Part shown: piece by piece, positions 8,573 through 45,858 of the stretch
Numbering within the stretch: position 1 is the stretch's first letter
Layout: each line of letters opens with the position of its first letter
Virus record (IMG/VR): IMGVR_UViG_3300045988_126226
Coordinates: 3,035-67,034 of that record
DNA: 64,000 bases
Direction: 5' to 3' (one strand)
From: a virus
Notes under the pieces: model-generated
What the model was told of the DNA's origin: nothing
What the model saw: the letters and a program-made list of their open reading frames with translations, nothing else
Databases searched by the model: none
Translations under genes and position numbers: made by a program

Positions 8573-9835
8573 TTGGCTGATGTTTATATGAAATCAAAGT
8601 TCTATTTTAAACGCGGAAAGGCAGCTTCTTGGATTGAGAAAAATATTCTCTTAGGACCTGGCGAGCCTGGTTTTGAAATAGATACTGGTCGATTAAAGGT
8701 TGGCGATGGTATTCATTAGTGGAATAATCTTCCTTATCTTGCAGAAAATGAGATAAAGAATGAAATAAATAAATATTTTAGTGATGTCGCTTATTTTATT
8801 GGATAGAAAGAATCTTTACCTGAAGATCCAAATACTAAAGAAGGTACAATGTGCTTAGTTGGTGAAGATTTTTATATTTATGATGGTGAAAAATGGAGAT
8901 TATTACAAGGTAAATCTTCTCAAGGAACTGTTGAAGTTATAAAAATTAAAGGTGAAAACCAAGGACTACCTGCTGATGAAGTAGAAATTAATGGAACAAA
9001 ATATTCTACTATTGAAGAAGCAATTCAAAATGCTTCTAATAATGATACTATAATTTTGTAGAAAACAGTTAAAAATATTGATATTCCAAAAGGAAAAAAT
9101 ATTAATATTGATTTAAATAATATTAGTATCTTAAATAATGAAGACAATCCAGTTAAAATTAATAATAACGCTTCTTTAATTATTTCGGGAGAAGGATGCG
9201 TTGAATGTAATAAACATGGTAAAGCATCTATTGAGAATAATGGAAATACAACTATTATAAATGGTGAGTATAAACGTTCTATTGATGAAAAAGGTAATGG
9301 ATATTATGTAATAGTAAATCATGGTGAAATGTCTATTTATGATGGAATATTCTCCTCTCCGGGCGGGTTATCTAGTATGATTGAGAATGGATATTACGAT
9401 TATCTTTCTCAATACCATTTAGGCGAGTCCGCGGAATATCCTAAATTAATTATTAATGGTGGTACTTTTATTAATGCTTATACTACTATTAAAAATGATG
9501 ATGCTGGTATTTGTGAAATTAATGGTGGTAATTTTTATGGTATGCTTTATAACGTTGGTAAAAGTTTAACTATAAATGATGGTTATTTCTATACTGATGA
9601 TGGTTATGAAATTATTCAATGTAAAAAGAATAATGATGATATTAATGCTGGTATTTTAACTATTAATGGAGGAATTTTTGAAACTACTTGCGATAAAATT
9701 CTTTCTAGTATAAATAATGCCAAAATTATTATTAAAGGTGGAAAATTTAATAAACCTCTTCCCGAAGAATTTATTGCTTCTGGATATAAACAAAAATTAG
9801 TAAATAATTATTATAATATAATAAAGGAGGGATAA
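8573..9835 (+). CDS. tail fibre/spike protein: conserved N-terminal tail-fibre motif plus C-terminal beta-helix (pectate-lyase-like NGG repeats); 3 in-frame TAG
   Basis: TTG start 7 nt after AGGAGG; N-terminus GPGEPGFEIDTGRLKVGDG.H(TAG)WNNLPY shared with 4 paralogs; repeated INGG.F segments. Confidence 0.5.
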
Positions 9836-9836
9836 T

Positions 9837-10223
9837 ATGGCGTTTAATGTTGTCTATGCAGATAAAAATAAAATTAAATCCAGCATCAAACAAGGTATTA
9901 TTCCAAAAGAAAGTCTAATTTTAACAACTGATGAAAATTAGTCAGAGGCTTATTATTATGATGATGAAGGTAATTTAAAATATATTACCAAAAAGACTTC
10001 TTTTGATTCTATAATTGAAGCTCGCACTTGGATCGCAAAATATGATTATAAGGGTGAAGTAATTTCAATTTTTTAGAATAAACAATGGACTCCCTATTTG
10101 GTTAATGAAGATAATAGCATTACTGAAATTGGTAAAACTTCTTAGTATTCATTAATAGATGGCGGAAATGCTTAATTTTTTTTTATTAAGGAGGAAATTT
10201 TAATATGGCTGGAAATACTTTAA
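9837..10223 (+). CDS. hypothetical protein with probable frameshift near 10138-10145 (homopolymer TTT); 2 in-frame TAG
   Basis: ATG after AAGGAGGG; frame 0 runs into next gene; deleting one T in AAAACTTTC gives ...EIGKTSQYSLIDGGNA then TAA. Confidence 0.3.
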
Positions 10224-11452
10224 AAACCCGTATTCAACTCCGCAATGATGAAGCAGCCACTTGGGTTGAAAAAAACCCTGTGCTGTTAAAAGGTGAAATG
10301 GGTATTGAAGTTGACACTGGTAAAATTAAGATTGGTGATGGGACTAAAGCTTGGAATGAACTTAATTACTCCGGTGTCGATGAGAATGCTATTAAATCTA
10401 TTATTAATAGCAATCGTGATAAAGTTTCTGTCTTAACTCTAACTGAAGGTAAGACCGATGCCGATATGCTAGCAACAATTGCCACCCCTGTTTAGGGAGA
10501 TATGGCTGTTGTTGAAAATACGTTTGTTGAGGGTAAAACTTCTCGTACTGCGTATTTCTATAATGGCGCTAATTGGGCCGCTTTTGATGGTAATTATCGT
10601 GCTGATAATGTGTATTTTGATGACGATATTACTTATACTGTTGCCATTGGTACTCTTGCTCAGCCCTCTGGCTCTGCTAAATTTGCTGCTAAGGGTAAGA
10701 ATGTTGAATAGGTACTCTCTTCTTTAATGGCTCAGGAGGTCAATCCTTCTAAGTCTAATCCTGCTGTATCCTTTACAGCTGAAGGCGGTTTTGGTACTTT
10801 TGAGATTGGTACTAAGAAGAATTTGACCTATACAGCAGCTCTCTCTACTGGTAATTATACCTATGGTCCTGCTACTGGTATCACTGCTCAAACTTGGGAA
10901 GTTAATTGTACTGGTGTTGCTGATAGTAAGTCCACTGCAACTGGTTCTTTTGAGAATATTGTTGCTGAGGCCACTTCCAAGAAGATTACTGCCAAGGCTA
11001 CTTATAATGAGGGTGCGGTTCCTAAAACTAATCTTGGTAATCCTTATCCTGAAGGTAAGATTAAAGCTGGTAGCGCTACTGCAAATTCAAAAACTCTAAC
11101 TGGTGTCCGTTATATGTTTTGGGGCCCTATGTCCAGTGTTGATATGGCTCTGAACTCTGCTAATATCCGCGCGCTTGTGCATAAACAGGCTAGTGGCACT
11201 GGTACTCTTGGTACATTCGGTGCTGGTGCTGGTGCGAAGAAAGTTGTTGTTGCCGTTCCTGCTGGCCGCAAGATTACTAAGGTTCTTATGCCTAGCGCAC
11301 TCAATGCTGATGTTACTGCTCTATTCGTAAAACAAGGTACTCAAGTTGATGTTGAAGGTGCTAATGGTTATACTGCGGCTAAATATGATGTATATGTTTA
11401 TCAGCCTGCTTCTATTGATGCTGGCGAGACTTATGCTGTCACCATCGGCTAA
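10205..11452 (+). CDS. tail fibre protein (N-terminal conserved fibre domain), 2 in-frame TAG
   Basis: RBS AAGGAGG; MAGNTLKTRIQLRNDEAATWVEKNPVLLKGEMGIEVDTGKIKIGDGTKAWNEL; TAA stop. Confidence 0.55.
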
Positions 11453-23281: not shown

Positions 23282-23310
23282 TTGACATTTTATAAAAAAT
23301 ATTATATAAT
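23282..23310 (+). promoter_or_regulatory. conserved phage promoter upstream of the intron-containing tRNA-Leu
   Basis: TTGACATTTTATAAAAAATATTATATAAT. Confidence 0.6.
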
Positions 23311-23537
23311 ATTTATATAAAATGAAGAAAGACCTTATCAGCAAATATAAGAATAAAATCTTTACCAAACTTCAAGGATGTTATTTGAGGTCTTGTAAAT
23401 ATTATCTAAAGCCCGCGAGAGAAAAAATAGACGGACTGAGCGTCAGTAATTCTGGCTGGAACTTGAAGAGGAAGTTGTTGGCTGACATTAAAGCTGATAT
23501 CCGCGGGCGTGGCGGAACTGGCAGACGCCTGGGACTT

Positions 23538-24301
23538 TGATGTATTCTATCCGTGTCAAAATGGATACTACTATTTAATAGTAGAGAGTGCCTAAGAGGA
23601 AACTCTTAGAGTAGAAGCTGGCTAAAACGGCGAAGGCGAATACAGAACGCCGTGCTAAATTTTGGCATACATTTCTAAAATTGGACGACACTAATTAATT
23701 TATTTCCTTTAATTTTATATATAATAGAAATTAAAGGAGTTGATTAATTTGCGTAATGATATTTTAGAAAGAAAAGATGAAATATTACAATGGATTAGTG
23801 AAAACCGTTCAAAAGCTTTTATGGCAAGAGAATTAGGTTGTAATCCAAAAACTATTAATCCTATTTTAGCAAAATTAGGAATTGAATATTCTGGGAATTA
23901 GAGTGGAAAAGGTATTTCAAAACCTAATAGTGATTATATGTCATTAGAAGAATATTTAAAAAATAGTTAGGATATTCAAAGTAATAAAGTAAGAATTAAG
24001 TTATTGCGAGAAGGGTATAAAGAACATAAATGTGAAAATTGTGGTTTAACTGAATGGTTAGGTTAGCCTATTCCATTAGAGTTGCATCATAAAGACGGCA
24101 ATAGAAATCATAATGAAATTGAAAATTATCAATTATTATGTCCTAATTGTCATACTTTCACAGATTCTTATCGCGGTAAAAATAGTGCCAAATAAATGTG
24201 TAGAGAGTATACACCAGCTATCTAAGTCTGAATAAGATATGGTAAAGACGTACTCCAGACTACAACACAGAAATGTGGCTATGGTGACATAGAGTAGTAA
24301 G
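23538..24301 (+). mobile_element. group I intron (764 nt) in tRNA-Leu(UAA), carrying an HNH homing endonuclease ORF
   Basis: insertion at the classical U34/A35 site of tRNA-Leu(UAA); exon ends in U, intron ends in G; GNRA-capped hairpin CTAAGAG-GAAA-CTCTTAG and other hairpins at 23566-23650. Confidence 0.5.
23750..24195 (+). CDS. intron-encoded HNH homing endonuclease (148 aa, 3 in-frame TAG)
   Basis: RBS AAAGGAG then TTG 23750; CENCGLTEWLG(TAG)PIPLELHHKDGNRNHNEIENYQLLCPNCH; TAG aligns with K/Q of the WNGK/WQGK motif. Confidence 0.55.
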
Positions 24302-24684
24302 AAAATCCCATGAGGTAAACCCTCGTACGAGTTCGATTCTCGTCGCCCGCACCATTAAATAATAATAGCTAACGGCAGTTGCCTCTAATGAAAATTAGAT
24401 AGACGGGTCGGGGTTGACATAGACAGGTCAACAGGTAGTACAGCAGTAGGTAACAAATCTGCAAGTCGAAATAAGTTGGGAAAACCAAATGATACGGCTT
24501 AGTCCTTCGTAAGAAGTTGAAGAGAGATTTTAGGTAAAAGATAACAACTTTTAACTGCTCTTCGTAATTGACCATGAAACCGGGTCATAGCTACCATATT
24601 ATTATTTAAGTTAATCTAAAAGGAGTGAGTCCAATGGGTTCTCGAATGGTTATCTTTTAACATCTTTTAAAGGAGGTTAAAAGA

Positions 24685-25566: not shown

Positions 25567-25709
25567 CTTGTCTCACGCGGTTGTAGCTCAGGGGTAGAGC
25601 AGTAGCCTTGATGAAATAGTATAATGAAATACATTTCTTATGAAAAGATATGAGTTCAAATCTCATTTTCATCACCATTAAGCTATTGGCCGAGGGTTCG
25701 AATCCCTCC
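25567..25709 (+). tRNA. split tRNA-Lys (anticodon TTT) with a 68-nt tRNA-like insertion (25600-25667) in the anticodon loop between positions 34 and 35; halves sum to 75 nt
   Basis: 5' half 25567-25599: acceptor GCGGTTG, D arm GCTC-AGGGGTA-GAGC, anticodon stem GTAGC, CTT. 3' half 25668-25709: TTAA, stem GCTAT, variable TGGCC, T arm GAGGG-TTCGAAT-CCCTC, acceptor CAACCGC 7/7, A73, CCA. Joined loop CTTTTAA is 7 nt. Confidence 0.5.
25600..25667 (+). ncRNA. inserted mini tRNA-like element nested in the tRNA-Lys anticodon loop
   Basis: own 7-bp acceptor GATGAAA/TTTCATC, D arm GTA-TAATGAAA-TAC, T arm ATGAG-TTCAAAT-CTCAT, A73, CCA; anticodon arm degenerate with no variable loop. Confidence 0.4.
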
Positions 25710-25835
25710 AACCGCACCATAAGTTGAAAGTAATATTATTTATTGCGCAATAACATAGGTTAAGTTGGTAGACTAATTTAATTATAAATTTAATTAGTTT
25801 ATCAACTTTATTTTTTTATAAAGGAGAATAGTAAT

Positions 25836-37024: not shown

Positions 37025-37795
37025 ATTATTTTATCACAGGTTAGCGATACTCATGGTAAAGTGGCCGAACGTTTAGAAACTTTAAGATCTAAGCATCCCG
37101 ATCTTAAACCGGCGGAAACCGCGTTAATTATTCTTGGTGATGCCGGATTTAATTTTTATCTTAATAAATCTGACTATAAGAATAAAAAGCAAGTAAATAA
37201 TATGGGATATATTGTTTACTGTCTTCGTGGAAATCATGAAGAACGCCCTGAAAACATCCCTGGAATGGCTATTATGGTAGATCATGATATCCATGGTGAA
37301 GTATATGTAGAGTCCATGTTTTCTAATATTCGTTATCTCATGGATGGAAATGTTTATGATTTTGGCATTTTTAGTACTCTATGTATCGGCGGAGCTTATT
37401 CTGTCGATAAGTGGTATCGTCTTCAAAATTTTCGTCAATCTAATGGTTGGTGTGGATGGTTTGCGGAAGAACAACTTTTCCCTGACGAAATGAACCATAT
37501 TACTAAGAAAGTAAAGAATAATTACTTTGATTTTGTTCTTACTCATACTTGTCCTCGCTGTTGGGAACCTACTGATCTTTTTATTAGTGGAATTGACCAA
37601 TCTGCGGTTGATAAATCTATGGAAGACTGGCTAGATAAATTAAAAAATCAAATTAATTTTACAGTTTGGTGTTTTGGCCATTATCATGCGGACCGCACTG
37701 AAGATGAAGGGGTAGAACAATATTTTTATGATATTGAAGAATTAACAAGTATTTGGGATAGAACTTTAAAGTATATCCCTCGGAATTTAGAATAA
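37025..37795 (+). CDS. calcineurin-like metallophosphoesterase; annotated GTG at 37061 but the MPE motif I (SDTHG) lies upstream, in frame with and immediately after the stop of the inserted endonuclease gene
   Basis: ...ILSQVSDTHGKVAERLE..ILGDAGFN..LRGNHE..GHYHAD; no canonical start codon before DTHG. Confidence 0.5.
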   Translation: MILSQVSDTHGKVAERLETLRSKHPDLKPAETALIILGDAGFNFYLNKSDYKNKKQVNNMGYIVYCLRGNHEERPENIPGMAIMVDHDIHGEVYVESMFSNIRYLMDGNVYDFGIFSTLCIGGAYSVDKWYRLQNFRQSNGWCGWFAEEQLFPDEMNHITKKVKNNYFDFVLTHTCPRCWEPTDLFISGIDQSAVDKSMEDWLDKLKNQINFTVWCFGHYHADRTEDEGVEQYFYDIEELTSIWDRTLKYIPRNLE

Positions 37796-38572: not shown

Positions 38573-39322
38573 ATGAGTTTAATTGATTTAAGTGGTTAGA
38601 AATTTGGACGTTTAACTGTATTATATCGAGATATAGAAGAAGAAAAAAAGAAAAAAGATAGAAGTGCTATATGGAAATGTAAATGTGATTGTGGTAATTT
38701 TAAATCAGTGGTAGGGAAAGATTTAAGAATTGGAAAAACTCAATCTTGCGGATGTCTACAAAAGGAAAGAACTAGTAAAATAAATAGCAGTCAATTAATT
38801 GGAAAAAAATTTGGAAAACTAACTGTAATTTAGTAGCTTCCTTCAAAAAATCATAGAACATATTGGTTATGTAAGTGTGATTGTGGAAATACTTGTGAAG
38901 TATGTGCTAGAGAACTGAACCAAGGAGATACTAAATCTTGTGGTTGTTTATTTTCTAAAGGAGAATACAAAATAGCTACTATTTTAAATAAATTATAGAT
39001 TGCTTATAAAAAAGAATATATTTTTCCAAACTATAAAAATGCCAGATTTGATTTTGCTTTATTCGATAAACAAAATAAAATCTTTTGTTTAATTGAATAT
39101 GATGGAGAATAGCACTTTTTAGAAAAAGTGACAAATTCAGGATGGAATACTAAAGATAGATATGAAAATATTGTTCATCCTAAAGACATAGAAAAGAATA
39201 ACTATTGTAAAGAAAATAATATTCCTTTATTAAGAATACCTTATTATGATTATGAAAAATTAAATGAAAATTATTTAGAAAGGGAAATAAAAAAATGTAT
39301 AGAGCGTATGTTACAAAAGTAA
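38573..39322 (+). CDS. homing-endonuclease-like protein (zinc-finger repeats plus DUF559/Vsr-like nuclease), 5 in-frame TAG including a TAG-TAG pair
   Basis: RBS AAAGGAG; IDLSG(TAG)KFGRLTVL, IWKCKCDCGN, YWLCKCDCGN, EYDGE(TAG)HFLE, PLLRIPYY. Confidence 0.5.
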
Positions 39323-40665
39323 AAAATATACGACCCGCAGAAAATGCCGATAGATTAAATCTTTGCGAAGCTTTTGGTAATACTGTGGTTGTAGATAAAA
39401 ATGTAAATGAAAATGATTTATATATTTATTTTCCTTGTGATGGACAATTATCTTTAGAATTTTGTTTAAATAATAATCTTCTAAGAAAGTTGCCTGATGG
39501 GACCCCAAGCTCTGGTTATATGGATCCTGACAAAAGAAATGTCATAGCAATTAAATTAAGAGGTAATAAAAGTGATGGTTTAGTTTTACCTCTTAATTGC
39601 GTTTCTTATACTGGAGTTCTTCTTAATGAGTTGACCGAAGGTTTTGCATTTACTACTCTGAATGGACATGAGATTTGTAAAAAGTATATTCCTATGCGTC
39701 AGAATCGTCAGGGCCATGTAAGCGAGGGGAATCATGTGCGCAAGAAGAAAGCTCCTATTGCCCCTCTGTTTATCGAGCATGCTGATACGGAGCAGTTGGC
39801 TTATAACCTTGATGCCTTTAAGCCGAATGACCTTATTGAGATTACTCTAAAGATGCATGGCACTTCTCAGCGCACCGGCTATCTTCCTATGTTTAAGGGT
39901 TATAAGAGAACTCTTTTGGATAGAATTATGCGTCGTGATGGCACTCCCATTTATGAATATGGATATGTATCTGGCACTCGTCGCACTGTGCTGAATGACT
40001 GGGAGGGTGGCTTCTATGGTTCTAATATGTTCCGTAAGAAGCACGCAGATTTCTTTGAGGGTAAGCTCCATAAGGGCGAGGAAGTCTATTATGAGGTTGT
40101 TGGTTTTACCGATGAGGGTATGCCTATTATGTCCTCTGCTTCCAATAAGAAGCTGAATGATAAAGATTTTCTTAAGAAGTATGGTGAAACTACTACCTTC
40201 TCTTATGGCTGCTCTTGCACTGGTTATTATACCTATGGTGATGGTAGCTATGATGTCCTCCCCAAGTCTGACTTCTATGTTTATCGCATGACTATGACTA
40301 ATGAAGATGGGGATGTTGTTGAATATACTCCTGATTTCATGCGCTATCGTTGTGAGCAGATGGGCTGTAAGTGTGTTCCTGTTCTATGGAGAGGTTTTTT
40401 GGATGACACTACTGATTGGAATGACGCAGGTATGACTGCTGGCGAGCAGGTTAAAGAAATTGCTGAGCGGTATTATGATGGTCCCGACCCGATTGGTAAG
40501 ATCCATGTTCGTGAAGGCGTTGTAATTCGTATTCTTAATCGTCCGAAGTTCTGTGCTTATAAGCATAAGAATTTTGCCTTTAAGTGTCTTGAAGGCTTGG
40601 TAAAAGCAGAAGAGACCGCCCCTGATATGGAAGAGGCCGAAGAGGTGCAAAATGACGAAACTTGA
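39295..40665 (+). CDS. ATP-dependent RNA ligase, Rnl2-superfamily-like (456 aa)
   Basis: motif I-like EITLKMHGTS (KxHG, Rnl2-type rather than KxDG), motif IV-like REGVVIRI; no internal TAG. Confidence 0.45.
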   Translation: MYRAYVTKVKNIRPAENADRLNLCEAFGNTVVVDKNVNENDLYIYFPCDGQLSLEFCLNNNLLRKLPDGTPSSGYMDPDKRNVIAIKLRGNKSDGLVLPLNCVSYTGVLLNELTEGFAFTTLNGHEICKKYIPMRQNRQGHVSEGNHVRKKKAPIAPLFIEHADTEQLAYNLDAFKPNDLIEITLKMHGTSQRTGYLPMFKGYKRTLLDRIMRRDGTPIYEYGYVSGTRRTVLNDWEGGFYGSNMFRKKHADFFEGKLHKGEEVYYEVVGFTDEGMPIMSSASNKKLNDKDFLKKYGETTTFSYGCSCTGYYTYGDGSYDVLPKSDFYVYRMTMTNEDGDVVEYTPDFMRYRCEQMGCKCVPVLWRGFLDDTTDWNDAGMTAGEQVKEIAERYYDGPDPIGKIHVREGVVIRILNRPKFCAYKHKNFAFKCLEGLVKAEETAPDMEEAEEVQNDET

Positions 40666-43226: not shown

Positions 43227-43248
43227 ATTAAGAAAGGATTGATATTTT

Positions 43249-43968
43249 ATGAATAAAACATATGCGGTTAGCGATATTCATGGTATGAAACCTCTTTGGG
43301 ATCAAATTATGAAATACCTCGACCCAAGTGATACTCTTTATTGTCTGGGCGATTGCGCAGACCGCGGAAATGATGGCTGGGAAATCATTAAAGATGCTCT
43401 TGCCGATAAAAGAGTTATTTATCTTAAAGGTAATCATGAAGATATGCTATTTGAAGCTATGAAAGATTATCTTAAAGATGAAAATTTTAGTCAAGCATAT
43501 GCTCTTCTTTGTAATAACAGTGGAGCAAAAACATTTGAAGATTGGCAAATTGGAGAACATGCCAGTCCTGGTTGGTATCGTGAGCTTGCTAAACTTCCTC
43601 TGCAAGAAACTTATGTGAATAAGAATAATCAAATTATTCTTCTTTCTCATGCTGGTTATACTCTTGGCGATAGTCCTAATTCTTATAATTTAATTTGGAG
43701 TCGAGATCATTTCTATGATCCGTGGCCCGAGGGCCCATCCGCGGACCGCACTTTCTGTATTCATGGCCATACGCCTTTTCTGCTGATGCCTAATTATGAT
43801 CCTTATATTGCAGTAGGTAAAAGCTATAAAGATTTTAATTTGGAAAATATGAATCATTTTTGGTATTGCGATGGCCATAAGTGCGATATTGATAATGGTT
43901 CTTTTGCCACTGGAAAAACTTGTCTTATTGACCTTGACACATTCGAGACTATTGAATTTACTATGTAA
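43249..43968 (+). CDS. PPP-family Ser/Thr phosphatase-like metallophosphoesterase
   Basis: AVSDIHG ... LGDCADRGNDG ... LKGNHE. Confidence 0.55.
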   Translation: MNKTYAVSDIHGMKPLWDQIMKYLDPSDTLYCLGDCADRGNDGWEIIKDALADKRVIYLKGNHEDMLFEAMKDYLKDENFSQAYALLCNNSGAKTFEDWQIGEHASPGWYRELAKLPLQETYVNKNNQIILLSHAGYTLGDSPNSYNLIWSRDHFYDPWPEGPSADRTFCIHGHTPFLLMPNYDPYIAVGKSYKDFNLENMNHFWYCDGHKCDIDNGSFATGKTCLIDLDTFETIEFTM

Positions 43969-45338: not shown

Positions 45339-45858
45339 ATGAATACTAGAAAAAATCTTTGGATTATGTCTGGTATTCCTTAGTCTCGGCTCGGGTAAAA
45401 GCACGTTCCTTAAAAATCGTTGGCCTCAATGTGGTTGTGTTGTTTCTCGTGATGCTCTTCGTTTTCAAATATTAAATGATGATGAAAGCTATTTCGCCAA
45501 AGAAGAAAGTGTATGGCATGCTTTTGTTGAAGCAATCACTCTTTCTTTAAGAGACTATGATGATGTGTATGCGGATGCCACGCATCTTGGACCCGGCTCC
45601 CGCAAGAAACTCCTCAAAGCAATTAATGCAAAAGGATATGCAAATCTTAATGTGAATGTTATTTATTTTAATGTTCCTGTTGAAGTTTGCATTGAGCGCA
45701 ATAAACAGCGTGATGGTCGAGCGCAAGTTCCAGAAGAAGTAATTCGGAGTATGGCAAATTCTTTTACTCCTCCCACTTTTAAAGAATATATTAAATATAA
45801 CCTTATCCAAGAGGTTAACGAAAAAGGAGAAGTGATTCATACATGGCAATCTTTTTAA
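45339..45858 (+). pseudogene. polynucleotide-kinase-like P-loop kinase, disrupted (1 TAG plus 2 frame changes)
   Basis: frame 0 MNTRKNLWIMSGIP(TAG)SRLG stop; frame 2 KSTFLKNRW...HAFVEAIT stop; frame 1 LSLRDYDDVYADATHLGPGSRKK...; P-loop-like GIP.S.LGKSTF split across frames. Confidence 0.35.

Follow-up and report, generated by a model that had tools for sequence, protein, structure and literature searches.

The subject here is a split tRNA gene, and the element that splits it, in a stretch of viral DNA: 64,000 nucleotides (nt) of IMG/VR record IMGVR_UViG_3300045988_126226, positions 3,035 to 67,034 of that record, referred to below as the window and numbered from its own first letter. The window is AT-rich (33% G+C), has all its long open reading frames (ORFs) on the plus strand, many of them broken only by TAG, and carries 13 or more tRNA genes in an array. 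At 23503-24354 stand the two halves of the split gene, 764 nt apart. The locus is made up as follows, with related viral loci designated by an L and a number.

23503-23537, plus strand: 5′ exon of tRNA-Leu(UAA), with acceptor strand, D arm, 5′ side of the anticodon stem and C32, U33, U34; the same as in the uninterrupted gene of L001, L004 and L006.
23538-24301, plus strand: group I intron of 764 nt, with a P1-P9 structure and covariance model matches; L001, L004 and L006 lack exactly these bases.
24302-24354, plus strand: 3′ exon, with A35, A36, A37, A38, 3′ side of the anticodon stem, variable arm, T arm, acceptor strand, A73 and CCA.
23749-24195, plus strand: HNH homing-endonuclease gene in the P6 loop of the intron, 148 amino acids with TAG read through, TTG start, TAA stop at 24193-24195.

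When 23503-23537 is joined to 24302-24354, ARAGORN folds the product into an 88-nt tRNA-Leu(taa). Its acceptor is GCGGGCG/CGCCCGC, its variable arm is long, and A73 is followed by an encoded CCA, just the type of tRNA-Leu(UAA) that an earlier note, made from the letters of this DNA, had described; the sequence across the splice junction would be GGGACUU followed by AAAAUCCC. The gene as it stands is called neither by default ARAGORN nor by the Rfam tRNA model. How, then, can the junction be placed to the base? Joining exons by brute force with ARAGORN was uninformative, as nearly every join gave an anticodon, and the junction was settled because intron-less alleles exist. With the 5′ exon as query against viral contigs, nine related phage contigs of 65-197 kb were found, and in four of them (L001, L003, L004, L006) the tRNA-Leu gene is uninterrupted, its loop reading CTT/AAAA within GGGACTT AAAATCCC. 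In blastn alignments of the window with L001, L004 and L006 the flanks are 94-97% identical and the alignments break exactly at 23537/24302; because they stop at 23537 and resume at 24302, the insert is 23538-24301. Its first and last bases differ from the adjoining exon bases, and so its boundaries are unambiguous: it lies between U34 and A35, its last base is G, and A35 opens the 3′ exon. The 764-nt insert that the earlier note had put at U34/A35 is thereby borne out by the intron-less alleles and their alignment breaks.

The same site is filled in some relatives and empty in others while the flanks are 92-99% identical. L001, L004 and L006 are without the insert, and variants of it are present in L002, L005, L007, L008 and L009. 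L002 and L005 have a 738-nt form with a TAG-free endonuclease gene (the L009 copy is cut off), L007 has a 349-nt form without any ORF, and the L008 insert is a near-copy of the form in the window. When positions 23300-24600 were compared by blastn with 50,697 phage records, only the HNH coding part was matched, at 66-78% identity, and the ribozyme part not at all; nor was there, by blastn, a close phage relative of the window among the deposited phage records.

The proposed P1-P9 structure was derived by hand from the family sequences and then placed on the window. In the following list R1 and R2 are covariance models trained on bacterial tRNA intron sequences only, R1 spanning J6/7-P7-P3′-P8-J8/7-P7′ (56 sequences, 13 pairs) and R2 spanning the internal guide sequence (IGS), P2, P3, J3/4 and P4.

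23534-23537, plus strand: exon strand of P1, ACUU, pairing with GAGU at 23586-23589.
23548-23567 and 23568-23584, plus strand: two hairpins in the P1 loop, both with two-sided pair changes; the L005-type variant is without them, as are the bacterial relatives.
23586-23589, plus strand: IGS, GAGU, the 3′ strand of P1, aligned to the bacterial IGS by R2.
23592-23609, plus strand: P2 hairpin with GAAA tetraloop, six of its seven pairs with two-sided changes; matched by R2.
23617-23621, plus strand: P3 5′ strand, GCUGG, pairing with 24214-24218 and followed by J3/4, CUAAA.
23627-23632 with 23648-23653, plus strand: P4, ACGGCG/CGCCGU, 100% paired, with one compensatory pair (A-U to U-A).
23661-23668, plus strand: P6 5′ strand, UUUGGCAU, pairing with 24185-24192.
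24185-24192, plus strand: P6 3′ strand, GUGCCAAA, overlapping the last HNH codons.
24193-24209, plus strand: J6/7 (UAAAUGUGUA) and the P7 5′ strand, G-(A)-GAGUA with a bulged A, invariant in the family.
24214-24218, plus strand: P3 3′ strand, CCAGC, crossing P7 and so forming the pseudoknot.
24219-24244, plus strand: P8, with the motif UCUAAG/UAUGG; outer and inner stems covary; matched by R1.
24245-24256, plus strand: J8/7, AAGACG, and the P7 3′ strand, UACUCC (24251-24256).
24259-24298, plus strand: P9 domain, a three-way junction with the stem ACUAC/GUAGU around two hairpins (loops GAAA and GUGA); helices 11-14 covary.
24301, plus strand: terminal guanosine (omega-G), the last intron base, its boundary set by the intron-less alleles.

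At the 5′ splice site U23537 and G23586 form a U·G wobble, kept in 18 of 18 relatives. P2, with its GAAA loop, is the GNRA-capped hairpin that had been noticed earlier. Every cell of P3 is paired, compensatory changes are present in three of its five pairs, and the family has it as GCUGG/CCAGC, GUUGG/CCAAC, GUGGG/CCCAC and GGUGG/CCACC; P6 is 98.5% paired with two-sided changes in seven of its eight pairs, its sequence being different in almost every lineage. The predicted guanosine site in P7 (G24203-C24256, the bulged A24204, G24205-C24255) corresponds column for column to the bacterial P7, and R1 aligns J6/7 and the P7 5′ strand to bacterial GUGUAGAGACUA with every pair standard. J3/4, J6/7, J8/7, the bulged A of P7 and the terminal G are invariant in the family. 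The P8 motif is CCUAAG/UAUGG in most relatives, which we take to be the 11-nt receptor for a GAAA tetraloop. An assignment of ACUAC/GUAGU as P7, with CAGACUAC as R element, was dropped as it leaves no G-C guanosine site; that stem was reassigned to P9 because it fits better there, and GAGAGUA/UACUCC with its bulged A matches the bacterial P7. Group II and bulge-helix-bulge introns found no support, the boundaries, the U·G pair, the terminal G and the core all pointing to group I.

How far does the pairing hold up across the family? A 16-mer from the conserved 3′ part, ATGTGTAGAGAGTATA, matched 57 viral loci, about 45 of which also carry the 5′ motif CTAAAACGG(C/T)G at a suitable distance. Alignment A1 brings together 18 distinct family members, their P6 loops trimmed. 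Standard pairing is seen in 94.5% of its cells, compared with 30-44% in controls whose 3′ partners were slid by 1-3 columns; two-sided changes are seen in 37 of 70 pairs, compared with 14-19 in the slid controls, and none of 500 shuffles reaches the observed values, figures to be read with the structure having been derived from the same sequences and with many of the rows being closely related. Forms without an ORF (L007 at 349 nt; L020, L025 and L059 at about 255 nt) share one core with those that bear one. A curiosity of L020 is that the P3 3′ strand CCAG is replaced by its reverse complement CUGG, which still pairs by way of two G·U wobbles.

A second subfamily of this intron has P3 as UCUCC/GGAGA and a large insertion in P8 (L011, L015, L017-L019, L022-L024, L028-L032, L036, L039-L041, L043-L045, L047, L048, L051, L053-L055, L058 and L062). 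By eye its members are in other phage tRNA genes, for Arg(UCU), for tRNAs with a CAU anticodon and for Leu, the guide sequence varying to match each exon, and some of the loci do not look like tRNAs.

An independent line of evidence comes from bacteria. The 18-mer GGTGTAGAGACTAGACGG, a sequence of the Azoarcus ribozyme, matched at least 120 bacterial contigs, and many of the loci so matched are tRNA-Leu(UAA) genes split at CTT/...G/AAAATCC. This is the very split seen in the window and agrees with the proposal that the insert occupies the site of the classic tRNA-Leu(UAA) intron. R1 has a sole match in both strands of the 64-kb window, at 24197-24258 (30.7 bits, E=4e-5), and it is full length with 13 of 13 pairs standard; the third P7 pair is G-C in the window and C-G in the bacteria. 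The best match of R2 in the window is 23573-23635 (18.9 bits, E=0.007). By these two matches the insert contains both halves of a group I core, one on each side of the ORF and correctly ordered and oriented. Scanned over 550 kb of loci, R1 recovers 19 of 19 phage relatives with a compact core and finds nothing in the intron-less loci. The group I nature proposed earlier is accordingly upheld by comparative analysis of P3, P4, P6, P7, P8 and P9 together with the bacterial models, and a P3-P7 core is detectable both by compensatory changes and by the R1 and R2 matches.

The HNH gene starts at a TTG (23749) which is nine bases after AAGGAG and aligns with the ATG of the L005 homologue, and at its other end the final codons form the P6 3′ strand, codons and stop together overlapping P6 3′ and J6/7. 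The earlier note's HNH gene with three TAGs stands; its limits, 23750-24195, need adjustment to a start at 23749. The predicted protein has an N-terminal helix-turn-helix and a C-terminal HNH domain, matches PF01844 in Pfam (22.2 bits, the cut-off being 21.4) and, over residues 8-147, phrog_10822 'HNH endonuclease' in PHROGs (E=4e-28), and has the motif HH..N..CPNCH at residues 110-136. Homologues are present in L005, L027, L021 and L026. The in-frame TAG codons, with what the homologues have in their place, are these.

23899-23901, plus strand: TAG 1; at the homologous codon L027/L033 have Gln and L005 has Arg.
23968-23970, plus strand: TAG 2; the homologous codon is Ile in the L005-type homologue.
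24064-24066, plus strand: TAG 3, just 5′ of the HNH motif; Glu or Asp in L005/L027.

The frame is free of TAA, TGA and frameshifts over its 148 codons, and homology spans all three TAGs, the same three of which are retained in L008. Termination at TAG 1 would leave a 50-amino-acid fragment. Because all three precede the catalytic motif, synthesis at full length needs TAG decoding and, to judge from the sequence, the complete protein can only be made where TAG is sense, a dependence that had been proposed earlier and with which TAG being sense in many genes of the window accords. In L021/L035, which belong to a second endonuclease lineage, TAG stands at a position where the near-identical genes of L050/L052 encode Gln. 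Two unrelated HNH lineages occupy the same P6 loop, and this, with one ribozyme occurring both with and without an ORF, is the usual sign of semi-independent movement of intron and endonuclease.

That TAG is read as sense in the window is well supported, because in-frame TAGs are found in many long plus strand ORFs, there is a tRNA with the anticodon CUA, and TAG aligns with Gln in HNH genes. By our own sums over the ORF table there are about 75 in-frame TAGs in plus strand ORFs of at least 120 amino acids, and TAG makes up about 0.4% of codons in long plus strand ORFs as against 2% in the HNH gene; the small ORFs around tRNA-Leu have zero. The lysin gene at 53257-54630 matches its homologues in length only if eight TAGs are read through. 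Opposite these TAGs the closest homologues have mostly Q, E, K or R, with Q the commonest at two of the eight columns and mostly E, K, R or D at the remainder; some of the database sequences in this alignment may already be translations in which TAG was taken as Q. The relevant tRNA gene is the following.

5414-5503, plus strand: tRNA with anticodon CUA, found by ARAGORN and scoring 56.2 bits with the Rfam tRNA model; likely the TAG suppressor.

ARAGORN labels it 'Pyl', and its variable region of about 21 nt, U1·U72 mismatch and G73 make an odd build for a glutamine suppressor. That the meaning of TAG is Gln is, from the alignments, likely though not proven.

Taken together, these data make it highly probable that a mobile, IC3-like group I intron, carrying an HNH endonuclease gene dependent on TAG decoding, splits the phage tRNA-Leu(UAA) gene at U34/A35. 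The core is closely similar to that of bacterial IC-type tRNA-Leu introns, and the IC3 label reflects this resemblance rather than subgroup models. From the above we infer catalysis, homing, the timing of expression and promoter use, as in the following course of events. The tRNA-Leu gene would be transcribed, probably from a consensus promoter at 23282 described below, and the last exon bases, ACUU, would pair with the guide GAGU to form P1 with its U·G wobble at the splice site. On folding of the P3-P9 core a free guanosine held in P7 would attack the 5′ splice site, after which the terminal G24301 would take the place of that guanosine and the exons would be joined to give an ordinary tRNA-Leu(UAA). 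The HNH product presumably cuts intron-less tRNA-Leu copies in co-infecting relatives, repair then copying the intron in; this homing account is put forward because presence and absence of the insert between near-identical flanks is what homing predicts. The full endonuclease would appear only where TAG is decoded, probably as Gln, by the phage tRNA(CUA), while a cell with the standard code would yield only the 50-amino-acid N-terminal fragment.

Several observations weigh against a working intron with a working endonuclease. RF00028, the Rfam model that the earlier note had proposed as a check, gives no match on the window at its gathering threshold, nor on 23300-24600 at E≤10, nor at E≤10 on the ORF-less L007 (349 nt) or the compact L057 and L059 (about 250 nt). 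A P5 helix was searched for across the family, and no consistent pairing was found in the 15-nt stretch 23633-23647. The P1 loop is unusually long, with its two hairpins. P1 and P7 are invariant within the family and P7 has no internal covariation, its support coming instead from the compensatory difference between it and the bacterial P7. L046, a 235-nt intron in an Ile(UAU)-like tRNA, has no P6 helix between P4′ and J6/7. Then there are the TAGs, which could mark a decaying endonuclease gene. As to the first of these, four of four bacterial loci scanned with Rfam as a positive control score 43-56 bits on RF00028, where the window intron scores nothing. RF00028 is also known to miss some bacterial tRNA introns, for which a 2026 survey added a second, dedicated model (PMC13011429). 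Its silence is a property of the model and not proof of absence.

Might the intron splice and yet the HNH gene be a pseudogene, with the three TAGs genuine stops that mark its decay? Homing endonuclease genes often decay after fixation, the L005 and L027 homologues are without TAG, and what they and their like have opposite the three TAGs is not one residue but Q or R, then I, then E or D. Against this, the 148 codons are clear of TAA, TGA and frameshifts, homology is retained across each TAG, and the same three TAGs recur in L008. The window, besides, needs TAG read-through for conserved proteins, as with the eight TAGs of lysin, and carries tRNA(CUA), and the replacement of a Gln codon by TAG between the near-identical genes of L050/L052 and L021/L035 is further evidence that TAG need not signal decay. 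On balance we regard such a pseudogene as unlikely, if the least unlikely of the alternatives.

Alternatively, the ribozyme could be real in origin and no longer splice, tRNA-Leu being a dead copy with a decaying intron. The failure of RF00028 to detect the intron, the reduced P5 and the enlarged P1 loop would fit with that. What makes it improbable is that all core helices are still paired, with compensatory changes across many phages, that J3/4, J6/7, J8/7, the bulged A in P7 and the terminal G have stayed invariant, and that exon sequence is unchanged relative to the uninterrupted alleles. That the insert is a free-standing endonuclease cassette or other mobile element in a tRNA gene, with no removal at the RNA level, has some precedent in ORF-only insertions such as the one in the L001 tRNA-Lys gene (below), and can nevertheless be given next to no credence, since the ORF lies between stretches of conserved, covarying RNA structure that total about 310 nt and persist in ORF-less versions, and since models of the bacterial group I core match both flanks, in order and on the same strand.

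The surroundings of the intron-bearing tRNA-Leu gene include two features close to it.

23282-23310, plus strand: putative promoter of sigma-70 type, matching the consensus TTGACA-N17-TATAAT at 12 of 12 positions, 193 nt upstream of tRNA-Leu.
24368-24496: RAGATH-33 RNA (RF03102), 126.8 bits, above the gathering score, 14 nt past the tRNA-Leu CCA.

The promoter reported earlier at 23282 is indeed a perfect copy of the consensus. The window has eight such perfect sequences with 0.07 expected, and five of them on the plus strand (2988, 21889, 23098, 23282 and 25003), all in the tRNA-rich region, share the extended form TTGACATTT...ATATAAT. A 72-codon ORF (23322-23540) begins 12 nt after the -10 box at 23282, crosses the 5′ exon and takes its TGA from the first intron bases; Pfam and PHROGs gave no match to it, its region is 96-99% conserved in relatives, and it may simply be the pre-tRNA leader. 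A RAGATH-33 copy with identical score follows the tRNA in L007, and by alignment the RAGATH-33 stretch is also kept in the intron-less L001, L004 and L006. A literature search of incomplete coverage found no mention of RAGATH-33.

A second tRNA gene of the window is also interrupted, in another manner. The gene for tRNA-Lys(UUU) at 25577-25719, 1.2 kb downstream of tRNA-Leu, has 68 nt inserted between U34 and U35 (25610-25677), and without them a 75-nt tRNA-Lys(ttt) results. The insert has the form of a tRNA-like unit whose ends are precisely position 1 and CCA. By itself it reaches 53.3 bits with the Rfam tRNA model (E=1e-11) and has acceptor, D and T arms with a 4-nt loop replacing the anticodon loop; it has no group I core. 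L003, L004 and L006 have intron-less alleles, and the same insert is present in L002, L005, L038 and L183, the sole difference being at the base before CCA. One idea is that RNase P and the nuclease for 3′ tRNA ends cut the insert out and that a phage RNA ligase rejoins the halves. In L001 the tRNA-Lys gene, on the reverse strand at about 9780-10266 as oriented, has an insertion of about 486 nt after CTTTT. A single ORF (VELNSHFKGEITELQ...) fills almost all of it; ribozyme-like flanks and a terminal G are both lacking, and the ORF product looks, by eye, like a nuclease of the PD-(D/E)XK type. Elsewhere in the window is a set of genes of RNA-repair type (28226-29812, 35136-35942, 37022-37795, 39268-40665, 43243-43968, 45343-45858): an RNA ligase (phrog_968, E=9e-65), a polynucleotide kinase, two metallophosphoesterases, a nucleotidyltransferase (RlaP-like) and a DUF2828 'RNA-binding protein'. 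The set may have a bearing on the tRNA array and on the insertion in tRNA-Lys.

What of the intron in the window is familiar, and what is not? Group I introns of tRNA-Leu(UAA) at 34/35 are classical. With the bacterial IC3-type introns of that gene the one here shares the U34/A35 site within CTT/...G/AAAATCC, the guide GAGUGC, the GAAA-capped P2, GUAGAA 5′ of P3, an A-rich J3/4 and a P4 with CGG(C/G)G (J3/4-P4 being C(A/U)AA..CGG(C/G)GAA, and the P4 strands CGGCG/CGCCG occurring also in Burkholderia-type introns). It shares, further, (A/U)GC(C/U)AAG after P4′, the J6/7-P7 sequence GUGUAGAGA(C/G)UA with its bulged A, the P8 motif in the form CCUAAG/UAUGG that most of its relatives have, AAG..(A/G) then UA(G/C)UCC in J8/7-P7′ followed by AGAC(C/U)AC, and the 3′ end G(U/C)(A/G)GUAAG. 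It differs in being AT-rich and in having a phage tRNA gene as host, a 15-nt loop for P5, two extra hairpins in the P1 loop, P9 as a three-way junction, an HNH gene in P6, and a longer J4/6 and J6/7. A group I intron encoding an HNH protein has been described from tRNA-Leu(UAA) of Bacteroidota (PMC13011429); compared by description only, the tRNA, the class of endonuclease and an intron length of over 500 nt are the same, but that intron is bacterial and is read in the standard code.

With the introns of T4 td, nrdB and sunY, of Twort and of SPO1/Bastille the present one has in common that it is phage-borne and, as predicted here, of the self-splicing class, with the endonuclease gene, as often there, in a peripheral loop and the end of the ORF overlapping ribozyme helices. 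Those introns are in protein-coding genes and mostly of type IA2, whereas this one is in a tRNA gene and has an IC-type core. According to a 2014 review, every phage group I intron then known was in a protein-coding gene, although phages have many tRNA genes (PMC3984707), and a 2025 database paper describes viral group I introns as mostly IA2. No report of a group I intron in a phage tRNA gene was found in our literature search, whose coverage was incomplete. For the recoded endonuclease the nearest parallel is in the TGA-recoded 'Agate' phages, where an intron endonuclease gene is rich in the reassigned stop codon and a delay of its expression to late infection has been proposed (Borges et al., bioRxiv 10.1101/2021.08.26.457843). 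Enrichment of an intron-borne homing endonuclease gene in the reassigned codon is common to both; there, TGA (as Trp) and an early protein-coding gene are involved, and here TAG (probably as Gln) and a tRNA gene.

Each single ingredient is already known, and what appears to be new is their combination, together with a large family of such introns in phage tRNA genes that Rfam does not see; the phage tRNA host gene, the IC-type core, the size of the family and its invisibility to RF00028 seem to be the new aspects. A bolder proposal has two connected parts: that a large IC-type clade, invisible to the standard model, colonised phage tRNA genes, against the textbook view of protein-coding genes only, and that the TAGs of the endonuclease constitute a genetic-code lock. 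We offer the two together tentatively, as something rather to be doubted than assumed. The tRNA hosts of the clade are Leu(UAA) and the Ile(UAU)-like tRNA, with Arg(UCU) and the CAU-anticodon tRNAs recognised by eye.

An IC-type intron in a phage tRNA gene bears on where phage introns sit, and a scan with one 16-mer was enough to bring up about 45 related viral introns. As ARAGORN, the Rfam tRNA model and RF00028 are all blind to this gene, the tRNA sets of such phages are under-counted and their introns unreported; the family alignment could seed a covariance model for introns of this kind. The code lock, if true, would confine DNA cutting and homing to cells in which the code has been switched, be it late in infection or on co-infection by recoded relatives. 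The recoded endonuclease adds a second, independent case, with TAG and not TGA, for the idea of stop-codon recoding timing the expression of selfish nucleases.

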